Below are positions 48,219 to 60,039 of a stretch of 64,000 nucleotides of DNA, piece after piece (the stretch's first letter is position 1; each line of letters opens with the position of its first letter). Made by a program: the position numbers and the translations under genes. This DNA comes from Bacteroidaceae bacterium (GTDB lineage: Bacteria > Bacteroidota > Bacteroidia > Bacteroidales > Bacteroidaceae), in contig JAFXZK010000084.1 in NCBI GenBank assembly GCA_017541265.1, positions 4,217 through 68,216 on the forward strand, given 5' to 3'. A model generated the notes under the pieces. It had not been told where the DNA came from, ran no database searches, and worked only from the letters and a program-made list of their open reading frames with translations.

Positions 48219-51185
48219 CTAAAACCTGCCTCCGCGAGGACCTCCGCCGAAGCCGCCGCCATCTCTGCCTCCTCCGCGAGGGCTTCTGTCCTCACCACGA
48301 CCTCCTTCGCCGCGGCCTTCCTCGCCTCTGCCGCGACCACCACCGCGTCCGCCGAAGCGACCGAAGCGCCAGTTGGCGGAAAGCAGGACATAGCTGCGCA
48401 CCATTTCGTTCTGCGTGTCGGTGCGGCTTGTGGCGCTGATGTTGCGGTTCACGTCGTCGCGCTCGTTCAGGATATCGACGGCGCGAAGGCTGACGGTCAG
48501 CTGCTTGTGCGACAGGAAGCGCTGGCTGATGCTGCCGTTCCAGATGAGATGGTCGGTGTTCATGGCGGCATCGGAGTAGCCGCGACGGCTCTGCTGCTCG
48601 ATGTCGCTGCTGATGGTCATTCCCCAGGGCGTGGTAATCACAAAGCTGCCGCCGTAGTTGAAATTATGGTGGTCGAGGTTTGATGCCGTCGCGTTGTTGC
48701 TGCGGTTGAGGTTGTAGCGGAAGTAGCCGTTGACGTTGGCCTCGACCTGCCATCCGCTCTCCCAGTCCTGACGGTAGGTGAGGCGTGCCCATTCGCTGAA
48801 GCTGCCGCTCTTCGTTTGGTTCTCCACCGTCATCTTGTTCTGGCTGCGGTAGAGGTAGCCCACGGAATTGGACATGCTTATCTGCGTGTTGGTGTTGACC
48901 CGCCAATGCTTTTTCTCGTCAAGCGCGGTGTTGAAGTTGAAGGAGGCGGAGCCGTTCCAGTTGCCGTTGACGTTGACGGGCATCGTGGTACGTCCGCCCG
49001 TCACCTCGTTGTATTCCGTGCGGTTCGTCGTGCTGTTGCGTGTGGTATGGAACTGCAAGTTGAGTGCCGAGGTGCGCTGGCGGTCAGGCACGGAGCGGCG
49101 GTACTCGAAGCTGATGTGCTGCGTGAAGCTTGGCTTGAGGGCTGCATTGCCGATGCGGATGTTCAGGGGGTTGGCATCGGAGAGCGTGTCGGGAATCATG
49201 TCGGTGATGTTTGGCCAGCCCGTATCGGCGTTGTAGCGGAAGTCGAGCTGTTCCTGTCGGCTGAACTTGTAGCGGAAGTTCACGACGGGCGAGGCATTGA
49301 CGACGGTGCGCCGCAACAGCGTGTCGATGCGTCCCTTCTGATAGTCCACGCGGCTGATTTGCGGCTGCACGTTGCCGCCTATCGTGAGCTGGTAGCGGGT
49401 GCGGTTCATGCGCAGTTGCAGGCGCAGGTCGTGGTTCTGCCCGATGTTGCGCGTGTAGCTGCACTGCTGCTTGTCGGGGACGGCATAGGGCGAATCGTAG
49501 AACATGTCGTAGTTGCCGACGTTCACACCCAGCAGGTCGTTGTAGGGGTCGAAGATGGAGCGCACGTCGCGGTCGTTGTCGCGGAAGTTGTAGCGGTAGT
49601 TGTAGGTGAGCTGCAGGAAGGCTTGGTAGGCGATGGGTTCGCTGTAGCTGAAGCGTGCGTTGAAGTTGTAGTTGTAGTTTGCTCCTCTGTTGTACTGCAC
49701 TTTGTGATAGACGGAGTCGCTTCCGTCGAGGGCTTGGATGAGGTAGTAGTCCGTCTGCGAGTAGTTGTTGCTCTTGCTGTCGGAGTCGCCATAGCCTCCG
49801 CCGAGGTTGATTGTGATGTTGCGCCCGGGCTTTTTCAGGCGTTTGTTGATTTGCAGCGAGGCAGAGGCGTTGATATTCTTCGAGCGGATCCAGTTGTCGC
49901 CTACGCGGTGGTTCACGCCAATCGCATTGGCGAGTTTGAGATAGTCGGCCAGCGGAGTGGCGGAGTACTGGAAGGGGTCGTCGTTCCAAGTGGCAGACTC
50001 GTTGCTGCCCCCGCTGCTGTTTCTGCCGAAGCTGAACTCCGGGCGGAAGAGGATGTTCCAGGTCGAGTCGGGCTTCCATTCCACCTTGTACTGGAAGTTG
50101 AAGTTGCCGTTGCGACTGCTGCTGTTGTTTCTGTTTGCTGAATAGGCGGAGTTGCGAAGCTCGAAGTTCTGGGTGTTCGACTGCGAGGCGCTGCTGCTCT
50201 GCTGGAAGTTGCCGCCCAGGCTGCCGTTCAGCTCCACCTTCTTGTTTTCCCAGTTCATCGTTGTGCCAAGCTCCTGGCGGTCGTTCAGACCGTTGCCCTG
50301 CGTGTTGTTGGCGCTGCCCACGAAGCTGAACTTCTGGTCGCCCCGGAAGGAGTTCACGTTCATTCGTCCGTTGTAGCGTTCGTGAGTGCCGTAGGCTCCG
50401 TTGGCGTTGCCGAAGAGTCCCTTCTTCTTGTTCTTCTTAATGGCGAGGTCGAGGACTGTGCGCTCGTTGCCGTCGTCGATGCCCGTGATGCGTGCCATAT
50501 CGCTCTTCTTGTCGTAGGCCTTCACCTTATCGACAATCTCGGCGGGGATGTTTTGGAGTATCAGGTTGCGGTTGTTTCCGAAGAACTCCTTGCCATCCAC
50601 GAGGATTTGGCTGATGCTCTTGCCGTTGAAGGTGTAGTTGCCGTTCTCGTCCTGCACGATGCCCGGCAGCTTCTTGATGAGATCCTCCACCATCGAGCCG
50701 TCCGGGAGCTTGAAGGCGTCGGCGTTGTAGGCCACGGTATCGTCCACCACGGTCATTTCCGGCAACTTGCCTTCTACCACAGCCTCCGCCATCACCGTGG
50801 CGTCCTCGCGCATCATCACGTCCGCCACTTTGAAGTTGCCCGAGCGCTTGGGTAGCGTCAGCTTGAACTTCTGCGTCTTGAAGCCCATAAACGAGACCTG
50901 CAACGTGTATGTGGCCGACGGGATGCCGGGCAGCAGGAACTGTCCGTTCTGCTTCGTCGTGGCACCCGCAATCATCGAGTCGCGTTCGTTGTAGAGCTTC
51001 ACGGCAGCCCCTTCCATCGGTTGCAGCTTCTCGTTCTCGAAGACTGTGCCGCGAATGTTGAGCAGAAAGAAAGACCCACCCTGTCCCTCCCTTAAAGGGA
51101 GGGTGTCTTCCCCCTTTAAGGGAGAGTTAGAGAGGGTCTGCAGCAGGAGCAGCAGCGTGGCGAGGTATCGTATAGTTTTTCCCAT
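48219..51185 (-). CDS. outer-membrane beta-barrel family protein (TonB-dependent-receptor-like) with N-terminal carboxypeptidase-regulatory-like domain
   Basis: IRGTVFENEKLQPMEGAAVKLY...YTLQVSFMGFK CarbopepD_reg-like domain, a long Asn/Tyr/Arg-rich beta-barrel, terminal aromatic F. Carries an RGG-rich tail and an in-frame insertion in the signal-peptide region. Confidence 0.75.
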   Translation of the reverse strand: MGKTIRYLATLLLLLQTLSNSPLKGEDTLPLREGQGGSFFLLNIRGTVFENEKLQPMEGAAVKLYNERDSMIAGATTKQNGQFLLPGIPSATYTLQVSFMGFKTQKFKLTLPKRSGNFKVADVMMREDATVMAEAVVEGKLPEMTVVDDTVAYNADAFKLPDGSMVEDLIKKLPGIVQDENGNYTFNGKSISQILVDGKEFFGNNRNLILQNIPAEIVDKVKAYDKKSDMARITGIDDGNERTVLDLAIKKNKKKGLFGNANGAYGTHERYNGRMNVNSFRGDQKFSFVGSANNTQGNGLNDRQELGTTMNWENKKVELNGSLGGNFQQSSSASQSNTQNFELRNSAYSANRNNSSSRNGNFNFQYKVEWKPDSTWNILFRPEFSFGRNSSGGSNESATWNDDPFQYSATPLADYLKLANAIGVNHRVGDNWIRSKNINASASLQINKRLKKPGRNITINLGGGYGDSDSKSNNYSQTDYYLIQALDGSDSVYHKVQYNRGANYNYNFNARFSYSEPIAYQAFLQLTYNYRYNFRDNDRDVRSIFDPYNDLLGVNVGNYDMFYDSPYAVPDKQQCSYTRNIGQNHDLRLQLRMNRTRYQLTIGGNVQPQISRVDYQKGRIDTLLRRTVVNASPVVNFRYKFSRQEQLDFRYNADTGWPNITDMIPDTLSDANPLNIRIGNAALKPSFTQHISFEYRRSVPDRQRTSALNLQFHTTRNSTTNRTEYNEVTGGRTTMPVNVNGNWNGSASFNFNTALDEKKHWRVNTNTQISMSNSVGYLYRSQNKMTVENQTKSGSFSEWARLTYRQDWESGWQVEANVNGYFRYNLNRSNNATASNLDHHNFNYGGSFVITTPWGMTISSDIEQQSRRGYSDAAMNTDHLIWNGSISQRFLSHKQLTVSLRAVDILNERDDVNRNISATSRTDTQNEMVRSYVLLSANWRFGRFGGRGGGRGRGEEGRGEGGRGEDRSPRGGGRDGGGFGGGPRGGRF
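51072..51139. repeat. GC-rich palindromic element inside the outer-membrane protein gene (signal-peptide region), in frame
   Basis: agacccaccctgtccctcccttaaagggagggtgtcttccccctttaagggagagttagagagggtct. Hairpin ccctccc-ttaaa-gggaggg. Outer arms agaccc/gggtct. Confidence 0.75.
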
Positions 51186-51257
51186 ACCATATATAATGAC
51201 GCATGAAAGCGGCAAAGGTTTAATCGGGGAAAAGAAAAGAGAGCTGGGGGTGAGAAA

Positions 51258-51380
51258 CTACAGTTTGCCGTCAGTACCACCATGGGAGGACTGCAGTTTT
51301 TCCGCGGTAGGACTCCAGTCCTCCCACGGTGGGACTGCAGTCCTGCAATAGAGAATTTTTAGGAGGACTGAGTTCCTGCC
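51258..51380. repeat. nested-palindrome interspersed repeat, copy 2
   Basis: cagtaccaccatgggaggactgcagt...ccgcggtaggactccagtcctccc...gggactgcagtcc...tagagaatttttaggaggact aligns with the reverse complement of copy 1. Confidence 0.8.
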
Positions 51381-51447
51381 CATAAATATTTATGGAGGAT
51401 TTTGTTGTAATGCAAAGAAAGAAGACCACAACTGTATATTTTACAAG

Positions 51448-51912
51448 TCAGAACACGATGCCGCCGCTTTGCTTTATCTCGCTCATGACGAAGGTGCTCT
51501 CGATGGAGCCGACGCTTTCGATGTCGCCAAGCTTGGAGAGGATGAACTCCTGATAGTGTTTCATGTCGCGCGCGCGTACCTTTAATAAATAGTCGTACGC
51601 GCCGCTGGTGTTGTAGCACTCCGTCACTTCGGGGATGAGCAGGATGCGGCGCACGAAGCTGTCGGCTATCTCGTGGTTGATTTGCTTCAGCTTCACTTTG
51701 CAGAAGACAAGCAGCCCCAGCCCGAGTTTCTCGGGGTCGAGCACAGCCACATACTTGCGGATGTAGCCCTGCCGCTCGAGGCGCTTCTGCCGCTCGAAGA
51801 CGGGGGTGGGCGAGAGATTTACTGCTTCGGCAAGCTCTTTTGTAGTCAGTTTCGCGTTCCTTTGCAGCGTTTTCAGTATCTGCAAGTCGGTCTTGTCTAA
51901 GGTTTCTGCCAT
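51448..51912 (-). CDS. Lrp/AsnC-family transcriptional regulator
   Basis: DKTDLQILKTLQRNAKLTTKELAEAVNLSPTPVFERQKRLERQGYI HTH plus a C-terminal RAM domain. The 553-aa ORF-track frame was trimmed to the MAETL start. Confidence 0.9.
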   Translation of the reverse strand: MAETLDKTDLQILKTLQRNAKLTTKELAEAVNLSPTPVFERQKRLERQGYIRKYVAVLDPEKLGLGLLVFCKVKLKQINHEIADSFVRRILLIPEVTECYNTSGAYDYLLKVRARDMKHYQEFILSKLGDIESVGSIESTFVMSEIKQSGGIVF

Positions 51913-51982
51913 AGTTTTAGAATGATATTCTGTTTGGAGCTGTCCAAGGAGTTCGAAATAGATGTTTCTTCTTCTCTGTTTG

Positions 51983-51990
51983 CAAAGGTA
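51983..51990 (-). promoter_or_regulatory. -7 box (tacctttg on minus strand), lrp-family gene
   Basis: 70 nt upstream of the start at 51912. Confidence 0.55.
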
Positions 51991-52042
51991 GTGATATTTT
52001 CCGAATATAGCAAGAAATTTGGAGGATATTTCCTTTTTGCCG

Positions 52043-52050
52043 TACCTTTG
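52043..52050 (+). promoter_or_regulatory. -7 box (tacctttg), metY
   Basis: 72 nt upstream of the ATG at 52123. Confidence 0.6.
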
Positions 52051-52122
52051 CAGCAGAAAACAATTCAACAGATGTCGTAATATCGAAATATCGCAATATC
52101 GTAACATAAAAAAATAAGGATT

Positions 52123-53406
52123 ATGAGCAAGAAACTTCATTTTGAGACTTTGCAGCTTCATGTAGGACAGGAGCAGGCAGACCCCGCAACGGATGCTCGC
52201 GCAGTTCCCATCTATCAGACCACGAGCTATGTGTTCCACAACTCTCAGCACGCAGCGGACCGTTTCGGACTGCGTGATGCAGGCAACATCTATGGTCGCC
52301 TCACCAATTCCACGCAAAGTGTGTTCGAGCAGCGTGTGGCTGCCCTCGAGGGTGGTGTGGCAGGCTTGGCCGTTGCCTCTGGTGCTGCTGCTATTACCTA
52401 CGCGCTTCAAAATATTGTGCAGGCGGGCGATCATATCGTCGCTGCTGACAACCTGTATGGCGGTTCCTACAATCTCATCACCCACACGCTGGCAACTCAA
52501 GGAATTACAAACTCTATCGTCAACGTGAATGACCTTGCGGCGCTTGAGGCCGCCATACAGCCAAATACGAAGGTGGTGTATGCCGAGACGTTTGGCAACC
52601 CTAACTCCGACGTGCTCGACATTGAGGGCGTGGCTGCGGTTGCCCATCGTCACGGCATCCCATTCATCGTGGACAACACCTTTGGTACACCCTACCTCAT
52701 CCGTCCCTTGGAGCACGGCGCAGACATTGTGGTGCACTCTGCTACAAAGTTCCTCGGCGGTCACGGCACCTCTCTTGGTGGTGTGATTGTGGATGGTGGC
52801 AAGTTCGACTGGAAGCAGAACGACAAGTTTCCCACGCTCGCTAAGCCAGACCCCTCGTATCATGGCATTGTCTTTGCCGATGCTGTGGGAGCCGCAGCCT
52901 ACGTCACCCGCATTCGTGCCGTCATTCTGCGCGATACAGGTGCTGCCATTTCTCCCTTCAATGCCTTCATTCTCTTGCAAGGTGTCGAGACGCTGAGCCT
53001 CAGAGTGGAGCGTCATGTGGAAAATGCCCTGAAGGTGGTTGAATTCCTTGCCAACCATCCCAAGGTGGCTAAAGTTAATCATCCAGCCCTCGAGAGTCAC
53101 CACGACCACACATTATATAATAAGTATTTCCCCAATGGTGGCGGCTCTATCTTTACCTTCGAGATTAAGGGCGGACAGGAAGAGGCTTGGCGCTTCATTG
53201 ATTCCCTGAAGATATTCTCCCTGCTGGCAAATGTGGCCGACGTGAAGAGCCTCGTGATTCATCCCTACACCACCACCCACTCGCAGCTCTCCCCCGAGGA
53301 ACTGGCCGAGCAGCACATCACGCCCTCTACCATCCGCCTCTCCATCGGCACGGAACACATAGATGACATCATCGACGACCTCAAGCAGGCATTCGACAAA
53401 ATCTGA
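52123..53406 (+). CDS. metY: O-acetylhomoserine aminocarboxypropyltransferase / sulfhydrylase
   Basis: LHFETLQLHVGQE...AVPIYQTTSYVF N-terminus and PLP-lysine region HSATKFLGGHG. Confidence 0.9.
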   Translation: MSKKLHFETLQLHVGQEQADPATDARAVPIYQTTSYVFHNSQHAADRFGLRDAGNIYGRLTNSTQSVFEQRVAALEGGVAGLAVASGAAAITYALQNIVQAGDHIVAADNLYGGSYNLITHTLATQGITNSIVNVNDLAALEAAIQPNTKVVYAETFGNPNSDVLDIEGVAAVAHRHGIPFIVDNTFGTPYLIRPLEHGADIVVHSATKFLGGHGTSLGGVIVDGGKFDWKQNDKFPTLAKPDPSYHGIVFADAVGAAAYVTRIRAVILRDTGAAISPFNAFILLQGVETLSLRVERHVENALKVVEFLANHPKVAKVNHPALESHHDHTLYNKYFPNGGGSIFTFEIKGGQEEAWRFIDSLKIFSLLANVADVKSLVIHPYTTTHSQLSPEELAEQHITPSTIRLSIGTEHIDDIIDDLKQAFDKI

Positions 53407-53430
53407 AGAAAATAACATAATAGGGTTATG

Positions 53431-53464
53431 ATTCTGCCAAATCTCCAAAAAGATTTGGCAGAAT
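53431..53464 (+). terminator. hairpin downstream of metY
   Basis: attctgccaaatct-ccaaaa-agatttggcagaat (14-bp perfect stem). Weak T tract. Confidence 0.55.
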
Positions 53465-53477
53465 GTGTTAATCTCCG

Positions 53478-53485
53478 TACCTTTG
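53478..53485 (+). promoter_or_regulatory. -7 box (tacctttg), LuxR-type regulator
   Basis: 24 nt upstream of the ATG at 53510. Confidence 0.55.
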
Positions 53486-53509
53486 CAGGCGGAAACACAC
53501 CAATCTTTG

Positions 53510-54154
53510 ATGAAAGAGTATATATTGGCCGACAATCAGGAACTCACGCGCTTTGCCGTGGAATGTCTTCTCTGCGAGGACAAAGAAATTGCTGTATATC
53601 ATGCTTCGGACAGAGCCACCCTCGTGTGCCTACTCTCCGGACATCCGGATGCTGTTGTGTTGCTCGACTACACCCTTTTCGACTTTTCCGACGAAGACCA
53701 GCTCCTCATCGTCGCAGAGCGTTTCAGCCAGTCGCAGTGGATTCTCATCAGCGACGAACTCACTCCTCAGTTCATGCGCCGCATGATCTATTCCTCCCAT
53801 CAGTTTAGCCTCTTGTTCAAGGATAGTCCTGTCGCAGAGGTGCGTGCGGCGCTACAGTCTGTCAGTCTCAGACATACCCGTTTCCTCAGTCAGCGCGTGC
53901 TTGAAGTCATTCTCAACCAACGACAAGAAGAGTCCCATCCGGACATTCTGACCGCAACGGAAGCAGAGATTCTGAAAGCCATAGCACAAGGCAAGACTAC
54001 CAAGGAGATTGCTGCGCAAAGATTTTCCAGCATCCATACCATTACGACCCACCGCAAGAATATCTTCCGCAAACTGGGCATCAACACGGCGCACGAAGCG
54101 GTGAAATACGCTCTCCGTGCCGGCCTCATCGATGCTTTGGAGTTTTACATATAG
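53510..54154 (+). CDS. LuxR-family response-regulator-like transcription factor (atypical receiver)
   Basis: C-terminal LuxR HTH LTATEAEILKAIAQGKTTKEIAAQRFSSIHTITTHRKNIFRKLG. The N-terminal receiver-like domain has DN instead of DD and an LLD acceptor site. Start placed after the -7 box at 53478. Confidence 0.7.
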   Translation: MKEYILADNQELTRFAVECLLCEDKEIAVYHASDRATLVCLLSGHPDAVVLLDYTLFDFSDEDQLLIVAERFSQSQWILISDELTPQFMRRMIYSSHQFSLLFKDSPVAEVRAALQSVSLRHTRFLSQRVLEVILNQRQEESHPDILTATEAEILKAIAQGKTTKEIAAQRFSSIHTITTHRKNIFRKLGINTAHEAVKYALRAGLIDALEFYI

Positions 54155-54300
54155 ATAGGACCATTCGATGGGCTTTTCTTCCCATAGGATGAAGACATGC
54201 GATACTATGGCAGTACGGATGAGGCATATCAGTTTTTGTACAAAATGAAGTTTAATTTGTCATTATTGGAACTCTTTTTTGTTGTTTCGTGAAAAGGAGT

Positions 54301-54308
54301 TACCTTTG
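54301..54308 (+). promoter_or_regulatory. -7 box (tacctttg), ThiD-like/AraC fusion gene and probably pdxST
   Basis: 5 nt upstream of the ATG at 54314. Confidence 0.55.
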
Positions 54309-54313
54309 CAGCC

Positions 54314-55225
54314 ATGAAACCGATATTGACCATAACAGGTAGTGACTCAACAGCGGGTTCGGGTGTGCAGGCGGACATCAAGACAATCTCCGAACTGGGT
54401 GGTTATGCCATGTCAGCCATTACCAGTATCACCGTTCAGACCACACTGGGCATCCAGCAGTTCTACGATGTGCCAGCCACCATCGTGGCGGGACAAATAG
54501 ATGCCGTAATGAATGATTTTGAGCCAGAAGTGGTGAAGATAGGTCTGATTCGCCGCGAGGATACTTTGGAAGTTGTTGTCAAGGCTCTGCAAAAGTATCA
54601 TCCGCACCATGTGATTCTCGATACTGTAGTGCTGTCATCAAGAGGTGATACGCTGATTAGTCACGAGATGATGGAAGCCATAAGCCTAAGATTGTTACCA
54701 CTATGCACGCTGGTCATCCATAAGAACGACGGCTCGATGCACGGTCTATCTAACCGCTACGCCAGTGCGGTGTCTGTGTTCCTAAGTCGGGGGCTTTCTG
54801 CAGAAGAGGCCGAATCCAAGGCTAAAGCCTATATCAGCACCCAGGTGATGAGGGCCAGTGACCTGCAGGGACGCAGCAGTGAGCTTTACAACGAACTGCT
54901 CGATGCCATTGCCGAACACCATCATGAAGCAAGTGATGTGCATTTCTATGCTGACCTGCTCAATGTCAGCAGTCGCTATCTGGCTCAAGTGACGCGTCGA
55001 ATCTCTGGCAAGTCGCCCAAGGCCATTATTGATGATTTCCTGATTCATGAGATAGAGTTGCAACTAAAATCGACGGATAATACTGTGCAGGAGGTCGCTT
55101 ACCACTTCGGTTTCTCCTCTCAGGCACATTTCACTAAATTTTTCAAGAAGCTAAAGGGCATTAGTCCTACAGAGTATCGGAAATTGAAATACGACAATTA
55201 TGAAACAAGACAGACAAAAACTTAA
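54314..55225 (+). CDS. fusion protein: degenerate ThiD/PdxK-like (phosphomethylpyrimidine/pyridoxal kinase family) domain + AraC-type HTH
   Basis: The N-terminus [39 protein letters not shown] matches the ThiD family, but the region between the HKND and GLSN segments is shortened. The C-terminus [27 protein letters not shown]...[32 protein letters not shown] is AraC HTH. Confidence 0.75.
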
Positions 55226-56075
55226 TCGTGAACTTGCTCAGATGCTGAAAGGCGGTGTTATTATGGATGTGACCACTCCCGAACAGGCTCGTATCGCTGA
55301 GGAGGCTGGTGCCTGTGCTGTGATGGCTCTGGAGCGTATTCCTGCCGACATCCGTGCAGCGGGTGGCGTGAGTCGTATGAGTGACCCTAAGATGATTCGT
55401 GGCATTCAGGAGGCCGTGAGCATCCCCGTAATGGCTAAGTGCCGCATTGGTCACATTGCAGAAGCACAGATTCTGCAAGCTATAGAGATTGACTATATCG
55501 ACGAGAGCGAGGTGTTGAGTCCTGCAGATAATATCTACCATATCGACAAGACAAAGTTCGACGTGCCTTTTGTATGTGGTGCCAAGAACCTAGGCGAGGC
55601 TCTGCGCCGTATTGCAGAAGGAGCCACGATGATTCGAACCAAGGGTGAGCCTGGTACGGGCGACGTGGTGCAGGCCGTGAGTCACATGCGTCTGATGCAG
55701 AGTGAGATTCGTCGTTTGGTCAGCATGAGCGAGGACGAGCTTTTTGAAACTGCCAAGCAGTTGCAAGCACCCTATGAGTTGGTAAAGTTCGTACATGAGA
55801 ATGGAAAGCTGCCTGTGGTGAACTTCGCCGCTGGTGGCGTGGCGACCCCTGCTGATGCAGCCCTGATGATGCAACTGGGTGCCGAGGGTGTGTTCGTAGG
55901 TAGCGGCATCTTCAAGAGTGGCAATCCCGCTAAGCGTGCCGCTGCCATCGTGCAGGCTGTGACCAACTATCAGGATGCCAAGATGCTGGCTGAACTCTCG
56001 GAGGACCTCGGTGAGGCTATGGTGGGTATCAACGAACAGGAGATAGAACTCTTGATGGCAGAGCGAGGGAAGTGA
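55200..56075 (+). CDS. pdxS: pyridoxal 5'-phosphate synthase lyase subunit PdxS
   Basis: [54 protein letters not shown]. The ATG lies 26 nt inside the upstream gene. Confidence 0.95.
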
Positions 56076-56093
56076 TATAAATGAATAGTTAAA

Positions 56094-56642
56094 ATGCGAA
56101 TAGCTGTTTTAGCATTACAAGGAGCATTTGCCGAACACGAGCAAATGCTTCGTCGTTTGGGCGTTGGGGCTTTCGAGGTTCGGCAGTTAGCCAATTGGAA
56201 TCAACCAAAGAACGGACTTATTATCCCTGGCGGCGAATCGACCACACAAGGGAAACTCCTTCATGATTTAGGCCTCTTTGAACCTATCCGGCAGGCCATC
56301 ACTGAGGGACTGCCAGTCTTGGGCACCTGTGCAGGGCTGATACTGCTGTCACCTATGCATTTGGGCACGATGGACATCGACGTCGAGCGCAACGCCTACG
56401 GCCGTCAGCTGGGCAGTTTTTACACGGAAGCACCCGTAGAGGGTATCGCCGGTAATGTCCCCATGACTTTTATCCGCGCGCCATATATCAACAAGGTACT
56501 ATCGTCCGATGTTCAAGTGCTGGCCAAGGTCGATAGTCACATTGTTGCTGCCCGTCAGGGACGCCAGCTCGTCACTGCTTTCCATCCTGAACTCGATTTT
56601 GACACCCGCATCCACGAGCTTTTCCTGTCTTTGGCCCGATAA
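56094..56642 (+). CDS. pdxT: pyridoxal 5'-phosphate synthase glutaminase subunit PdxT
   Basis: IAVLALQGAF, nucleophile GTCAG, C-terminal FHPE. Confidence 0.9.
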   Translation: MRIAVLALQGAFAEHEQMLRRLGVGAFEVRQLANWNQPKNGLIIPGGESTTQGKLLHDLGLFEPIRQAITEGLPVLGTCAGLILLSPMHLGTMDIDVERNAYGRQLGSFYTEAPVEGIAGNVPMTFIRAPYINKVLSSDVQVLAKVDSHIVAARQGRQLVTAFHPELDFDTRIHELFLSLAR

Positions 56643-56703
56643 TACCAAACTTATGGTATATAAATGCCATAAAAGGGGGATTGTGGGAATGCAAAAGTTG
56701 CCG

Positions 56704-56711
56704 TACCTTTG
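56704..56711 (+). promoter_or_regulatory. -7 box (tacctttg), cysK
   Basis: 49 nt upstream of the ATG at 56761. Confidence 0.6.
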
Positions 56712-56760
56712 CAGCAGAATTTGAAAAAGGTAAATTGTCAAATCATAAAACGAGAAGATT

Positions 56761-57708
56761 ATGTCTAAGATTGCAAAGCAGCTGACCGAGCTTATCGGCA
56801 ACACTCCTCTCTTGGAGCTTAACAAGTATTCAACGGCAAAGGGCATCCAGACCCCCATCATTGCCAAAGTAGAGTATTTCAACCCCGGCGGCAGCGTCAA
56901 GGATCGCATCGCCCTCGCCATGATTGAGGACGCAGAAGCGAAGGGCATCTTGAAGCCCGGTGCCACCATCATCGAACCCACCAGCGGCAATACGGGCGTG
57001 GGACTGGCACTCGTCTCTGCTGTCAAGGGCTACCACCTTATCCTTACCATGCCCGAGACGATGAGCATAGAGCGCCGCAACCTCGTCAAGGCATACGGAG
57101 CCGAGGTACGCCTCACCTCTGGCAAGGACGGAATGCCCGGAGCCATCCGCGCTGCCGAGGAGCTGCGCGACTCAATCCCTGGCAGTGTCATCCTCCAGCA
57201 GTTCGAGAACCCCGCCAATCCCGCCAAGCACTATGCAACGACAGGCCCGGAGGTTTGGCAGCAGACCGACGGCAAGGTTGACATCTTCGTGGGTGGCGTA
57301 GGCACGGGCGGCACCATCAGCGGTACAGGCAAATACCTGAAGGAGCAGAACCCGAACGTGAAGATTGTTGCCGTAGAGCCGAAGTCGAGTCCCGTCCTGA
57401 ACGGCGGACAGAGCGGCCCCCACAAGATTCAGGGCATCGGTGCCGGCTTCATCCCCAAGACCTACGATGCCGACGTCATCGATGAAGTCTTTGACGTGGA
57501 GAACGACGATGCCATCCGCACAGGTCGTGAGATAGCACAGCAGGAAGGCCTGCTGGTAGGCATCAGCGCAGGTGCAGCCCTCTATGCCGCCTCGCAGATA
57601 GCTCTCCGCCCGGAGAACAAAGGCAAGAAGATTGTCGTGCTCCTGCCCGATACAGGCGAGCGTTACCTCTCCACCGTGCTCTACGCTTTTGAGGACTATC
57701 CGCTGTAA
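56761..57708 (+). CDS. cysK: cysteine synthase A (O-acetylserine sulfhydrylase)
   Basis: PLP-lysine [25 protein letters not shown]. Confidence 0.9.
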
Positions 57709-57714
57709 CGGTTT

Positions 57715-57780
57715 TAAGTCCCTGTACTTGTCGTCATAAGTCCCTGTACTTATTGCCATAAGTCCCTGTACTTATCGCCA
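57715..57780 (+). repeat. 3 x 22-bp tandem repeat downstream of cysK
   Basis: taagtccctgtacttgtcgtca / taagtccctgtacttattgcca / taagtccctgtacttatcgcca, followed by a partial unit taagaacggggactt. Confidence 0.85.
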
Positions 57781-57799
57781 TAAGAACGGGGACTTTTTT
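57760..57799 (+). terminator. intrinsic terminator of cysK built from the last tandem-repeat unit
   Basis: aagtccctgt...acggggactt (10 bp including one G-U), followed by tttt. Confidence 0.6.
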
Positions 57800-57871
57800 C
57801 AGCAATGGCAGCAAGGCCTGCATGAAGAGGCGTTTTTTCCCTTTGTTCTTGCCTGTTTCGGAAAAAAACCG

Positions 57872-57879
57872 TACCTTTG
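57872..57879 (+). promoter_or_regulatory. -7 box (tacctttg), DUF3298 lipoprotein
   Basis: 37 nt upstream of the ATG at 57917. Confidence 0.55.
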
Positions 57880-57916
57880 CCCAAGAAACATGTTTTTAAC
57901 GATAAATTCCATACAG

Positions 57917-58678
57917 ATGAAAAAACTTTTTATCCTTTCCTTGGCTCTTCTGGCCTGTGCATGCACGGACACGAAAGACGACAGTAACGAACAGGCGGAA
58001 CTCTCATGGGGCACCGACTCCCTGTGCATTGAGAACCCTATCGCTCTGGGCGAGGACCTGTCCTATCAGATTGAAGTCAGGCTCGACACATTGGCAGGCG
58101 AGAGCGAGTTGGCAAAATCGCTTGCCGCAGTGCTTCGCGACAGCGTGCTGCACAAGCCGGGATGCGCCACGGTGCGCGAGACAATGGCTGCCTTTGCCGA
58201 CAGCATTGAGGCGGAATGGAAGACGGAACTTGCCGAGAGGTACGAGCCAGAGTCGGAGTACAACGAGATGCTCCAGTACTACCATACCGTCGAGGGCAGC
58301 CCTGCTGAAGGCGGCAATGACAGCATCCTGTCCTATCAGGCGACAACGGACTGCTACCTGGGCGGAGCGCACGGCAGCTACTATGTGCGGTACTTCAACT
58401 TCAACAAAAAGAGCGGCAAACTACTTAACATCAGCGACATCGTGCCTGCCGACAAGGAGATGCTGGTGTTGATGGCAATGGAAGAACAGCTTTGCGAAGA
58501 CTGGGATGCAAAAGACCTCGCCGACCTGCAGGAGAAGACTGGTATCACCATGCTGGGCAACCTCTACCTGACCAACAACTTCCTGCTCCGGGGCGACAGC
58601 ATCGAATTTCTCTTCAACCAATACGAGATTGCGCCCTACGCAGCAGGTCTCATCAGCGTCACACTCCCGAAGCCTTAA
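57917..58678 (+). CDS. DUF3298/DUF4163-type lipoprotein
   Basis: Lipobox LALLACAC. YLGGAHGSYYVRYFNF and FLFNQYEIAPYAAG patterns typical of the RsiV/PdaC N-terminal-like family. Confidence 0.7.
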   Translation: MKKLFILSLALLACACTDTKDDSNEQAELSWGTDSLCIENPIALGEDLSYQIEVRLDTLAGESELAKSLAAVLRDSVLHKPGCATVRETMAAFADSIEAEWKTELAERYEPESEYNEMLQYYHTVEGSPAEGGNDSILSYQATTDCYLGGAHGSYYVRYFNFNKKSGKLLNISDIVPADKEMLVLMAMEEQLCEDWDAKDLADLQEKTGITMLGNLYLTNNFLLRGDSIEFLFNQYEIAPYAAGLISVTLPKP

Positions 58679-58681
58679 TCC

Positions 58682-59908
58682 TCACCACCCTGTTGCTGCC
58701 CAGCCAGCAGCTGTGTACCAGGCGGTCTTCTGGAAGTCCTCGTTCCAATGGTAGCCGTCGGTGTCGTATCTCGTCATCGGCACGAACATTGAGACACCAC
58801 CATAGCATTCGGGAGCTACTATAACTGAATAGTCACAATAGTTGGCATACCACTCAGGATAGATGCGTCCGTCATGAGGGGGAGTGAGTGTGTATAGCGG
58901 TACTGCCTGATTGTAAAGCTCCATCCAGGCCGCATAGTCCTCTGGTGGAAGCAGGCGGCGCATCGTGGTTCGCATGTCGAAGCAATAGGTGAACTTGTTC
59001 ACGGCCATGTCGCAATAACACAGAAAGCCTTGGGTAGAAGGCTCTGTGTGCCCCATGTAAAAGGGTGTCAGAAAACGTCCTGTCGCTTCGGCAAGAGATT
59101 CGAGCTGCGAACAGTCGATGCAGGAAAGCAGTACGCCAGTATAGATGCTGCTGGGATAGCCGCTGTCGTAGCCTCTGACAATGCCCATTGCATCGCCTTG
59201 GCAGAGCGGTTCGACGATTTTGTAGTAGGGTGCACCCGGTCCCGGAATCTCGGCAGGCGAACCAATCATATAGTCTGTTACTTCCCGCAGTTCGTAAGCC
59301 ACCTCGATGCATTGCATGAAGCAGGCATCGAAGAAGATGTAGTCGAACTTGGGCAGTTGGGCAAGCACGTCGCGCAGCACGGGTATCTCCATCTCCGTCT
59401 CACCCGATGTTGAAGTTCCGGGGTAATCATCTTGTCCGAAGGTCTTGCGGCGCACGTTGTGCCTTGGTGTCCAGCCTGTTGCGTGCGACCAGAATGTGAT
59501 GCCGTAGTGGCGGGCAGGGAAGAAGGTCTTTATCTCGCGGAGTACTTGGAGCATCACGTCGGCACTGGTGCTGCAAAGTTCCTCGCCGTATTGCTTCCAG
59601 AGCTGCATTCCGTTCTTCGCCGACAGCTCATAGATGGCGGGCTTGCCGCTTCTGGTGTCCATGAAGATGATGAAGTTGACATTCTCTGGAATCATGTCCT
59701 TACTGCTCACCATCTCGGTCGTGTCAGCTCTGGCGGCGGAAGGATAATTGTCGAGCGTGTTGTCGGCAGCCATATAGATGATGACAGTCCGCTCAGCCTC
59801 TGCACGAGGCTTCGGAGTAAGGTCAACAGGGTATTCGAGCCTGTCGCGACACCCAGCCACGAGAAGCACGCTATATAATATAATAATGTATAGGCCGAAG
59901 CGTTTCAT
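58682..59908 (-). CDS. clostripain-family (C11) cysteine peptidase lipoprotein
   Basis: Lipobox LLVAGC. RTVIIYMAADNTLDNY, catalytic-dyad contexts FWSHATGW (His) and IFFDACFM (Cys). Start at MKRFGLY. Confidence 0.8.
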   Translation of the reverse strand: MKRFGLYIIILYSVLLVAGCRDRLEYPVDLTPKPRAEAERTVIIYMAADNTLDNYPSAARADTTEMVSSKDMIPENVNFIIFMDTRSGKPAIYELSAKNGMQLWKQYGEELCSTSADVMLQVLREIKTFFPARHYGITFWSHATGWTPRHNVRRKTFGQDDYPGTSTSGETEMEIPVLRDVLAQLPKFDYIFFDACFMQCIEVAYELREVTDYMIGSPAEIPGPGAPYYKIVEPLCQGDAMGIVRGYDSGYPSSIYTGVLLSCIDCSQLESLAEATGRFLTPFYMGHTEPSTQGFLCYCDMAVNKFTYCFDMRTTMRRLLPPEDYAAWMELYNQAVPLYTLTPPHDGRIYPEWYANYCDYSVIVAPECYGGVSMFVPMTRYDTDGYHWNEDFQKTAWYTAAGWAATGW

Positions 59909-59913
59909 GGGCG

Positions 59914-59921
59914 CAAAGGTA
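59914..59921 (-). promoter_or_regulatory. -7 box (tacctttg on minus strand), C11 peptidase
   Basis: 5 nt upstream of the ATG at 59908. Confidence 0.5.
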
Positions 59922-59926
59922 AGAAG

Positions 59927-59974
59927 AAATTTACAATTTGACAATTTACCATTTACGATTTATTGACTATTTGG
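59927..59974 (-). repeat. aaattgtaaat-family word array upstream of the C11 peptidase gene
   Basis: The minus strand reads ccaaatagtcaataaatcgtaaatggtaaattgtcaaattgtaaattt. Confidence 0.7.
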
Positions 59975-60039
59975 CCATTTTTCTTTATTCTTAATTCATA
60001 AGGCAATAAGGAAGCTCCCTTTTCCGTTATTATACTGTT

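Follow-up and report, generated by a model that had tools for sequence, protein, structure and literature searches.

We analysed a 64,000-nucleotide stretch of contig JAFXZK010000084.1 from a Bacteroidaceae bacterium (assembly GCA_017541265.1; this whole stretch is called the window below), in which an open reading frame at 54314..55225 on the + strand was called as a coding sequence for a protein of 303 amino acids (aa) with an ATG start, followed by pdxS and pdxT, the genes for the two subunits of pyridoxal phosphate (PLP) synthase. We propose that the gene encodes a one-component transcription factor. Its N-terminal domain would be a truncated and catalytically dead descendant of ThiD, the kinase of hydroxymethylpyrimidine (HMP) and its phosphate (HMP-P), in which the ATP-binding half is gone and the pocket for the heterocycle of HMP and HMP-P is kept. 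Its C-terminal AraC-type double helix-turn-helix (HTH) is predicted to bind a pair of direct repeats of about 17 nucleotides (nt), 21 nt apart, at 54235-54272. The protein is very probably a transcription factor for pdxST, and we consider it reasonably probable that it is, as a whole, an AraC-type activator of these genes whose pseudokinase sensor answers to a vitamer of vitamin B6.

The two-part structure of the regulator was evident from profile and structure searches. The Pfam profile Phos_pyr_kin (PF08543) matched residues 11-135 (E = 1e-42), which corresponded to positions 1-124 of the 246 in the profile, and the C-terminal region matched HTH_18 (residues 212-290; 74.5 bits against a cut-off of 33.6, E = 8e-21) and HTH_AraC (residues 251-290; 54.7 bits against 26.6). 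The NCBIfam equivalog model for HMP-P kinase, TIGR00097, scored 139.1 bits, under its cut-off of 204.95, and covered profile positions 1-131 of 254 only. Neither a GntR nor an aminotransferase domain was found in the regulator with Pfam and NCBIfam. In a phmmer search of the PDB, residues 4-135 aligned with residues 26-157 of the ThiD structure 7r8y and residues 141-181 with its residues 226-266; as the alignment jumped from 157 to 226, the C-terminal half of ThiD is short by about 66 residues in the regulator. The anion-hole helix was retained in this alignment, the HGTGC of ThiD now reading HGLSN. The N-domain aligned with ThiD structures with E-values of 1e-35 to 1e-26 and with ThiD2-type pyridoxal kinases with 1e-16 to 1e-15, and residues 4-135 were 40-48% identical to genuine ThiDs by tblastn.

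The AlphaFold2 model built on the family alignment had a mean predicted local distance difference test score (pLDDT) of 92.1 and a predicted template modelling score of 0.75, with helices at 143-158 and 163-178 in the C-terminal ThiD part and seven helices over residues 187-301. Its best Foldseek matches in the PDB were the ThiD structures 7r8y, 8g1h, 4jjp and 1jxh/1jxi (E = 1e-15 to 1e-13), which outranked ThiD2-type pyridoxal kinases and PdxK, and the DNA-binding part matched 6swi, 3oou, 2k9s and 3w6v (phmmer/Foldseek), with a target-normalised template modelling score of 0.79 for 6swi. Four segments were delimited on the + strand. Residues 1-135 (54314..54718) are the N-terminal half of the ThiD fold with its ligand-pocket residues, as indicated by Pfam, PDB alignments, the model, Foldseek and conservation. 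The short residues 136-140 (HKNDG, 54719..54733) form, according to the segment lengths, a deletion scar at which the NxxE motif and the ATP-binding strands of ThiD are gone. Residues 141-181 (54734..54856) comprise two C-terminal ThiD helices with the degenerate anion hole HGLSN (second phmmer stretch and model), and residues 186-291 (54869..55186) a linker helix and the AraC/XylS-type double HTH (HTH_18, HTH_AraC and PDB matches). An earlier note on this DNA had described a degenerate ThiD/PdxK-like domain fused to an AraC HTH. The fusion itself was borne out by Pfam, NCBIfam and the PDB alignments, as was the AraC-type double HTH in the C-terminal ~100 aa, for which both profiles scored above the Pfam cut-offs. 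The kinase-fold match assigned to residues 1 to ~110 is present and extends to residue ~135, and the domain is of the ThiD (HMP-P kinase) type and not of the PdxK type, judging from the PDB E-values and the fold ranking.

Every family member checked in NCBI, UniRef and JGI, including a Segatella copri cluster of 7,829 member sequences, was labelled '(bifunctional) hydroxymethylpyrimidine/phosphomethylpyrimidine kinase'. According to this naming, with which the strong ThiD match of the N-terminal half agrees, the protein would be an active (bifunctional) HMP/HMP-P kinase equipped with a DNA-binding domain, like BirA or NadR. We compared 96 family members with 16 genuine ThiD controls in a conservation alignment, scoring the NxxE positions via ThiD-anchored alignment columns. 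The catalytic Cys of HGTGC was found in 0/96 family members (Asn in 74, Gly in 13 and Ser in 7) and in 16/16 controls, the preceding Gly, which is the second Gly of the anion hole, in 19/96 and 16/16, and the Thr in 0/96 and 15/16, respectively. In the ribokinase superfamily, the NxxE motif (TPNxxE) takes part in handling Mg-ATP and phosphate. Its Asn was kept in a single family member (1/96, with Arg or Lys in 73) and in all 16 controls, and the motif is deleted in the window protein. The Lys of KGGH was likewise absent from all 22 family members still having that segment, and present in 16/16 controls. Because these losses of Cys, Thr, Gly, Asn and Lys include members with a full-length fold, catalysis appears to have been lost family-wide.

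Four of five ThiD features were accordingly lacking in the regulator (the full-length score, NxxE, the ATP lobe with KGGH, and HGTGC), and the heterocycle pocket was the fifth, which was present. With a TIGR00097 score of 139 against 205 bits and without the ATP-binding half, NxxE and the catalytic Cys, the sequence indicates that the window protein is almost certainly not a kinase, and the chance that its annotation is right appears minimal. The loss of catalytic and ATP residues, which the earlier note had put forward as a point to check, was thus seen throughout the family. Judged by these residues, the members checked are uniformly misannotated as kinase, and genome-scale metabolic models and B-vitamin auxotrophy predictions for these species may consequently credit a ThiD activity that the gene cannot supply.

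The segment between TPN and HGTGC comprises 69-81 residues in ThiD and 8 in the window protein, which is among the most reduced forms; the ATP-binding/anion-hole part is indeed shortened, as had been noted before. Across the family the segment fell into classes of 68-84, 44-47, 35, 25-31 and 7-14 residues, of which the 35-residue class was the largest (~35 sequences, S. copri complex included). We consider it somewhat likelier than the contrary, jointly with the view discussed below that the regulator founds a new class of B6 regulators, that the ATP lobe was shed stepwise after catalysis had been lost, from ~75 to 45, 35, 27 and finally 8 residues.

The side of the domain that faces the heterocycle has been retained. 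Among the 96 members, G9 (95/96), Q19 (95/96), Q42 (90/96), Met or Leu at position 78 (95/96) and G111 (94/96) were kept, S10, D11, G17, D21, K75, G77, H143 and G144 were invariant or nearly so, and T40 was conserved as in ThiD. The pocket residues of the window protein are GSD 9-11, Q19, D21, Q42, K75, G77, L78 and G111, the N-terminal residues that we take to line the heterocycle pocket in the complex of Salmonella typhimurium ThiD with HMP (1JXI). Next to the pocket, family-wide changes relative to ThiD were found at A43 (to V), M108 (to I/V), T211 (to L) and C213 (to N). For pairs with unsaturated synonymous divergence (dS), the ratio of nonsynonymous to synonymous substitution rates (dN/dS) was 0.03-0.10 in the truncated N-domain and 0.03-0.04 in the HTH domain. 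The former is near the latter, and the N-domain is a module in use, not a remnant in decay.

Such a module might nevertheless act for dimerisation or as a scaffold only, binding no small molecule, in a constitutive or otherwise controlled activator or repressor of pdxST. ThiD is known as a dimer and AraC regulators as proteins that need an N-terminal dimerisation domain, the progressive shrinkage of the ATP lobe from 84 to 7 residues would be expected of a domain losing its functions, and GSD, Q19 and D21 also belong to the core of the fold, where conservation is no proof of ligand binding. However, the purifying selection on the N-domain nearly matches that on the DNA-binding domain, only the ATP side was removed while the heterocycle-pocket side, H143-G144 and Q42 were retained, and a biosynthetic operon with a dedicated regulator yet no metabolite input would be unusual. 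We regard a pure scaffold as unlikely and have good confidence that the ThiD pocket of the regulator senses a small molecule. The ThiD-like domain probably supplies dimerisation as well.

Searching 1.8 billion representative proteins exhaustively and without a profile, we found dozens of fusions of the ThiD-like/AraC kind at 34-54% identity, in a short form of ~290-335 aa and a long form of ~360-390 aa. One genome per GTDB species was also scanned, using as query the family-specific C-terminal part from a six-sequence alignment. This gave 239 matches confirmed by tblastn, the best 80 of which were kept for locus analysis, with ~12 kb inspected per genome. These 80 loci belonged to Prevotella, Segatella including the S. 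copri complex, Hoylesella, Leyella, Candidatus Limimorpha and unclassified Bacteroidales, and one of them, in the sheep-rumen metagenome-assembled genome (MAG) RGIG6784 (L007), was a 99% match to the window. Six Prevotella-type loci (L041, L044, L047, L061, L077 and L078) lay in MAGs labelled Lachnospiraceae, Clostridia, Waltera intestinalis or Acutalibacteraceae ('cleanbin'), labels that probably reflect binning contamination. A separate oddity was P0160, a 361-aa ThiD of the enterobacterial type in which roughly the first 95 kinase-domain residues occur as an internal tandem duplication. A pseudogene or an assembly artefact was ruled out for the regulator, as an identical protein occurred on at least 8 independent contigs and its cluster on 28 contigs, dN/dS was 0.1 or lower, and the model reached a pLDDT of 92.

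Within the window, the regulator gene is followed on the + strand by pdxS (55200..56075; lyase subunit, 510 bits with NF003215 and 496 bits with TIGR00343) and pdxT (56094..56642; glutaminase subunit, 201 bits with TIGR03800). The pdxS ATG at 55200 falls within the final 26 nt of the regulator gene. The gene callers of four contigs in ENA placed the start 42 nt later, at about 55242, giving a protein of 277 aa. As the N-terminal helix of PdxS counted from the ATG at 55200 is kept across other genomes, the 26-nt overlap is real, and the later start appears to be a miscall avoiding the overlap. The overlap and the order of the two following genes, both already noticed from the letters alone, were in this way confirmed by curated profiles and by the conserved PdxS N-terminus.

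The linkage to pdxST was conserved well beyond this genome. Enough downstream sequence to judge was available for 70 of the 80 GTDB loci, and in 46 of these pdxS started within 300 nt past the regulator stop, with overlaps of 26, 8, 4 or 1 nt in several. It lay 300-1000 nt downstream in six, 1.3-5.2 kb downstream in seven and divergent from the regulator in one (L081), and it was absent within ~6 kb in ten. In total, pdxS was found within 1 kb downstream or divergent in 53/70 loci and within 6 kb in 60/70. All 17 cases of displaced or missing pdxS were from the S. copri complex, in which the gap carried variable cargo (an AAA_14/DUF4143 ATPase, an outer-membrane protein (OMP) beta-barrel protein or DUF5036). 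Insertions of 1.3-5.2 kb or more were located at 6628-10943 in L074 and 6839-8938 in L053, and were also seen in L054, L059, L070 and L076. The variability of the cargo indicates an insertion hotspot and not a different partner of the regulator.

The long-form regulators L029, L031, L046, L079 and L080 likewise had pdxST downstream of them. Among more distant members, P0121 (54% identity) and P0174 (34%) were upstream of pdxS-pdxT, P0157 (37%) was upstream of pdxS on a contig that stops within or just past this gene, and P0146 (39%) was downstream of pdxS-pdxT. P0130 (46%) was convergent with pdxST on one contig, and on another pdxST was not nearby. Taken together, pdxST was linked on 5/6 informative contigs of distant members, a count that leaves aside the contigs of P0158, P0171 and P0166, which are too short to show neighbours. 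The co-occurrence with pdxST on which the earlier proposal depended therefore holds in 60 of 70 informative loci and extends to members of 34-46% identity in other orders. No thiamine gene or other conserved neighbour besides pdxS and pdxT was found in the informative loci, and no riboswitch or other Rfam element was detected in 50000-60000 of the window.

The promoter region of the window contained a candidate operator, all elements of which are given here on the + strand. The -7 box TACCTTTG is at 54301..54308, 5 nt before the regulator ATG as read previously, and the -33 element TTTG of a Bacteroidota-type promoter is at 54278..54281, 19 nt upstream of the -7 box; the consensus for such promoters reportedly stems from work by Bayley and colleagues in 2000. 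The proximal operator unit TTTGTCATTATTGGAAC (54256..54272; family consensus TTTGTCAAAAnGnGAAC) ends 5 nt before the -33 element, and a degenerate distal copy, TTTGTACAAAATGAAGTTT (54235..54253), is centred at about -70 from the predicted transcription start. A -7 box 4-5 nt ahead of the regulator ATG was also present in L007, L014, L017, L018 and L025, and this spacing predicts a near-leaderless mRNA for the first gene of the operon, with a transcription start predicted at or adjoining the regulator ATG.

The motif TGTCAWWWnnnGAAC was found 56-89 nt ahead of the regulator ATG at most tightly coupled loci (31 distinct promoters), and the copy TGTCATTATTGGAAC at 54258-54272 was the sole exact match within the 64-kb window. 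When the 31 promoters were anchored on the proximal unit, a distal conserved block, tTT.TacAAA.tga.GTTT, became visible. When anchored on the -7 box, 40 distinct promoters aligned without gaps, indicating a fixed geometry in the order of distal TTTRTACAAAWTGA, proximal TTTGTCAAAAnGnGAAC 21 nt further on, a T-rich -33 region and T[TA]nCTTTGCA. The last was the most conserved block, and the T-rich/TTTG columns were moderately conserved. With a leave-one-out position weight matrix (PWM) of the proximal unit, a second unit at exactly +21 nt was the best or second-best upstream match in 29 of the 40 promoters, and the S. copri group showed extra matches at about +43 and +64, giving up to four units in phase. 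A local repeat finder applied to 54100-54400 returned only short repeats at chance level, and the operator emerged only by cross-species comparison. A scan for sigma-70 promoters and terminators gave nothing above shuffled sequences, the sigma-70 model being one that does not apply to Bacteroidota promoters.

The position of this module relative to the two genes was informative. At loci with pdxS 130 nt to 5 kb from the regulator, the module was located directly upstream of pdxS and none was found upstream of the regulator gene. In the S. copri complex, pdxS still had its operator when insertions lay upstream of it. The distant loci L093 and L090 showed the same geometry of GAAC, ~28 nt and a -7 box ahead of pdxS. 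The operator/promoter module, at 54235-54308 in the window, tracks pdxS and not the regulator gene.

The operator unit is asymmetric and bipartite, TGTCA-N6-GAAC, with boxes about 11 nt apart. Canonical sites of AraC/XylS activators consist of a bipartite asymmetric unit with boxes approximately one helical turn apart, repeated directly at 21 nt, and the proximal unit ends ~5 nt from -33 (roughly -58 to -42). The units of ~17 nt found here, asymmetric direct repeats 21 nt apart with the proximal one abutting the -35-equivalent, resemble that layout, and AraC, RhaS, XylS and MelR share the double HTH with the regulator. The differences from these AraC/XylS activators are the sensor, a pseudokinase of ThiD origin where the family otherwise has a cupin or another known ligand domain, and the Bacteroidota -33/-7 promoter. 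Alternatively, the repeats could be bound by another factor or be UP-like elements of the promoter, and the fusion protein could regulate something else. The motif is rich in A and T and part of a promoter region, and within the about 12 kb surveyed per genome further regulon members or motif copies elsewhere would escape notice. Against this, the linkage holds in five gene arrangements and in proteins as low as 34% in identity, the asymmetric TGTCA-N6-GAAC unit, its 21-nt repeat and its end beside -33 form the classic AraC/XylS layout, and no transcription-factor gene other than the regulator is consistently present at the loci. Another binding factor is thus improbable in our estimation, and the repeats are best regarded as the putative operator of the regulator.

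As for the ligand, we propose that the pocket has been co-opted to detect a B6 vitamer, possibly pyridoxal or PLP, both of which closely resemble HMP and HMP-P in structure. The sensed molecule is, with moderate confidence, such a vitamer and not HMP-like. The least improbable alternative, though still a doubtful one, is a ligand from the thiamine pathway, such as HMP, HMP-P or a related pyrimidine, which would tie PLP synthase to vitamin B1 status through the same target. The N-domain is derived from a genuine ThiD and not from the pyridoxal kinase branch, according to the E-values and the fold ranking, and Q42, a residue that favours HMP and corresponds to Gln45 of AncC and Glu44 of S. typhimurium ThiD, is present in 90/96 members. 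In contrast, pdxS and pdxT are the only conserved neighbours, with no thiamine gene or thiamine pyrophosphate riboswitch at the informative loci, and the pocket-adjacent changes of A43 to V, M108 to I/V, T211 to L and C213 to N fit a changed specificity. In bacteria, the ThiC route to HMP-P is not known to consume PLP as a substrate, and there is consequently no obvious logic for coupling B1 status to pdxST. We retain the B6 vitamer as the preferred ligand.

Activation of the regulator-pdxS-pdxT operon at low B6 is the most likely action of the regulator, and binding of the vitamer would switch activation off as end-product feedback, by analogy with the effect of PLP on the MocR-type PdxR. The role of an activator, which we think fairly likely, is favoured because the predicted site adjoins -33: the repeats stop just upstream of this element of what would be a Bacteroidota sigma-A promoter. 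As the operon of this genome begins with the regulator gene, the protein would also regulate its own expression. RNA-seq of a triple-species biofilm of Prevotella bivia listed pdxT (+3.4 log2) and pdxS (+3.0 log2) among the top induced genes (PMC11410844). The same list contains a 'bifunctional HMP/PMP kinase', PREBIDRAFT_RS05120 (+2.7 log2; PMC11410844), and the co-induction is suggestive of an autoregulated operon, provided that this kinase-labelled gene is the ortholog and adjoins pdxS.

Several points weigh against this interpretation. One contig (L089) encodes a regulator identical to that of L090 with no pdxST nearby. The distal repeat is weak, since 27.5% of the best upstream PWM matches exceeded the 95th percentile of shuffles, and the promoters are phylogenetically related, so that the counts above are not independent. 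The Gln equivalent to Q42 is typical of HMP-specific ThiD, with Met at this position in ThiD2-type pyridoxal kinases; when pyridoxal kinase activity arose in the ThiD2 branch, Gln changed to Met. Since Q42 is kept, an HMP-like ligand is at least as well favoured as pyridoxal by the sequence alone. The near-perfect -7 box implies that an activator may not be strictly needed and that repression is conceivable. The chain from regulator through operator and ligand to pdxST expression is drawn from sequence and genomic context, from which we infer operator binding, activation, the B6 ligand and the dimeric state.

When compared with known systems, the N-domain is homologous to ThiD (PF08543, TIGR00097; 1JXH/1JXI, 7R8Y, 4JJP) and shares its fold, heterocycle-pocket residues and H-G. 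The regulator differs from ThiD in the lack of ~66 residues (NxxE motif, KGGH strand and ATP-binding lobe), in Asn at the place of the catalytic Cys, in the fusion to a DNA-binding domain and in the linkage to pdxST instead of thiamine genes, and it is no enzyme. The functionally closest system is PdxR (MocR/GntR; Corynebacterium glutamicum, Streptococcus pneumoniae, Listeria monocytogenes and Bacillus clausii), which has the same proposed role of a dedicated regulator that adjoins pdxST and acts at its promoter, although both of its domains are unrelated to those of the present regulator. PdxR consists of a winged HTH and an aminotransferase fold that holds PLP as a Schiff base, whereas the regulator has an AraC double HTH and a ribokinase-like pseudokinase. 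The range is also different, PdxR occurring mainly in Firmicutes and Actinobacteria and the ThiD-AraC regulator in Prevotella-group Bacteroidales. In the passages of PMC9997740 and PMC5320631 that cite the original work, PdxR is described as an activator whose action is antagonised by PLP.

Enzyme or kinase folds serve as sensors of transcription factors in the ROK-family repressors (NagC and Mlc), NrtR, BirA and NadR. The fold of ROK proteins is actin-like and that of the regulator ribokinase-like, and BirA and NadR keep catalysis. A precedent in concept is ThiR, an archaeal regulator of thiamine genes with a ThiN (thiamine-phosphate synthase-like) domain (Rodionov et al. 2017, PMC5287396, as summarised in PMC6593275), where an inactive copy of a vitamin-pathway enzyme joined to an HTH likewise acts as the sensor for vitamin genes. 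Enzyme fold, DNA-binding domain, vitamin and domain of life differ between the two, and the sensor of the present regulator is derived from the B1 pathway while its target belongs to B6.

Comparative-genomics papers on PLP name only the MocR-type regulators PdxR, PdxQ and PdxW (PMC9997740, PMC5320631, PMC6593275). The full-text literature searched, which leaves most subscription journals outside its coverage, contained neither a fusion of a ribokinase-superfamily pseudokinase with AraC nor a ThiD- or AraC-type B6 regulator. The remark of the earlier note that it knew of no described regulator in Bacteroidota needs a small qualification, as MocR-type PLP-related regulators are reported in some Bacteroidetes, with none given there for pdxST in Prevotella (PMC5320631). 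It is slightly more probable than its opposite that the regulator is the founding member of an undescribed class of B6 regulators, the first outside the MocR family, with a ThiD-derived pseudokinase as sensor. The earlier proposal of a PLP synthase regulator with a kinase-dead domain is supported by the residue losses, the linkage to pdxST and the operator that follows pdxS. Of the candidates so far for a B6 regulator in Bacteroidota, the protein is the strongest.

This provides a concrete candidate for the control of B6 synthesis in the Prevotella group, including Segatella copri, a dominant species of the human gut, and rumen Prevotella; no pdxST regulator for this group was found in the literature searched. 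A ribokinase-fold pseudokinase would join the enzyme-derived sensor domains, with the sensor from one vitamin pathway and the target in another, and the series of ATP-lobe lengths offers a clean natural case of reductive evolution in a domain that no longer catalyses. A B6-responsive genetic switch for Bacteroidota might be developed from the small ligand domain together with the predicted operator. The result corrects a widespread misannotation and overturns no principle.

The surroundings of the operon in the window contained further genes of interest. A LuxR/GerE gene (53465-54154) was considered as a part of the pdx system and rejected, as it was seen only in L007 and L009 among the loci. 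Its product is a GerE/LuxR-type protein with a sub-threshold receiver-like N-terminus and 85 bits with the MctR model, whose cut-off is 300. PLP-dependent enzymes flank the operon, namely an O-acetylhomoserine sulfhydrylase-like protein and a CysK-like protein (52123-53406 and 56761-57708). They recur in the closest relatives only, with CysK in L008, L009 and L011 in the opposite orientation. An Lrp/AsnC-type regulator is encoded near the operon (about 51448-51915, - strand). At many loci of the S. copri complex, a second, unrelated AraC-family gene with 26-32% identity to the HTH domain ends right upstream of the regulator (at about 5154-5459 in L060 and L085; also in L041, L049, L065 and L069-L071). 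Further upstream in the window, on the - strand at 48219-51215, a CarboxypepD_reg/OMP_b-brl_3 protein of 998 aa carries a Gly/Arg-rich (RGG-like) C-terminal tail of ~45 residues, which is unusual for its family.

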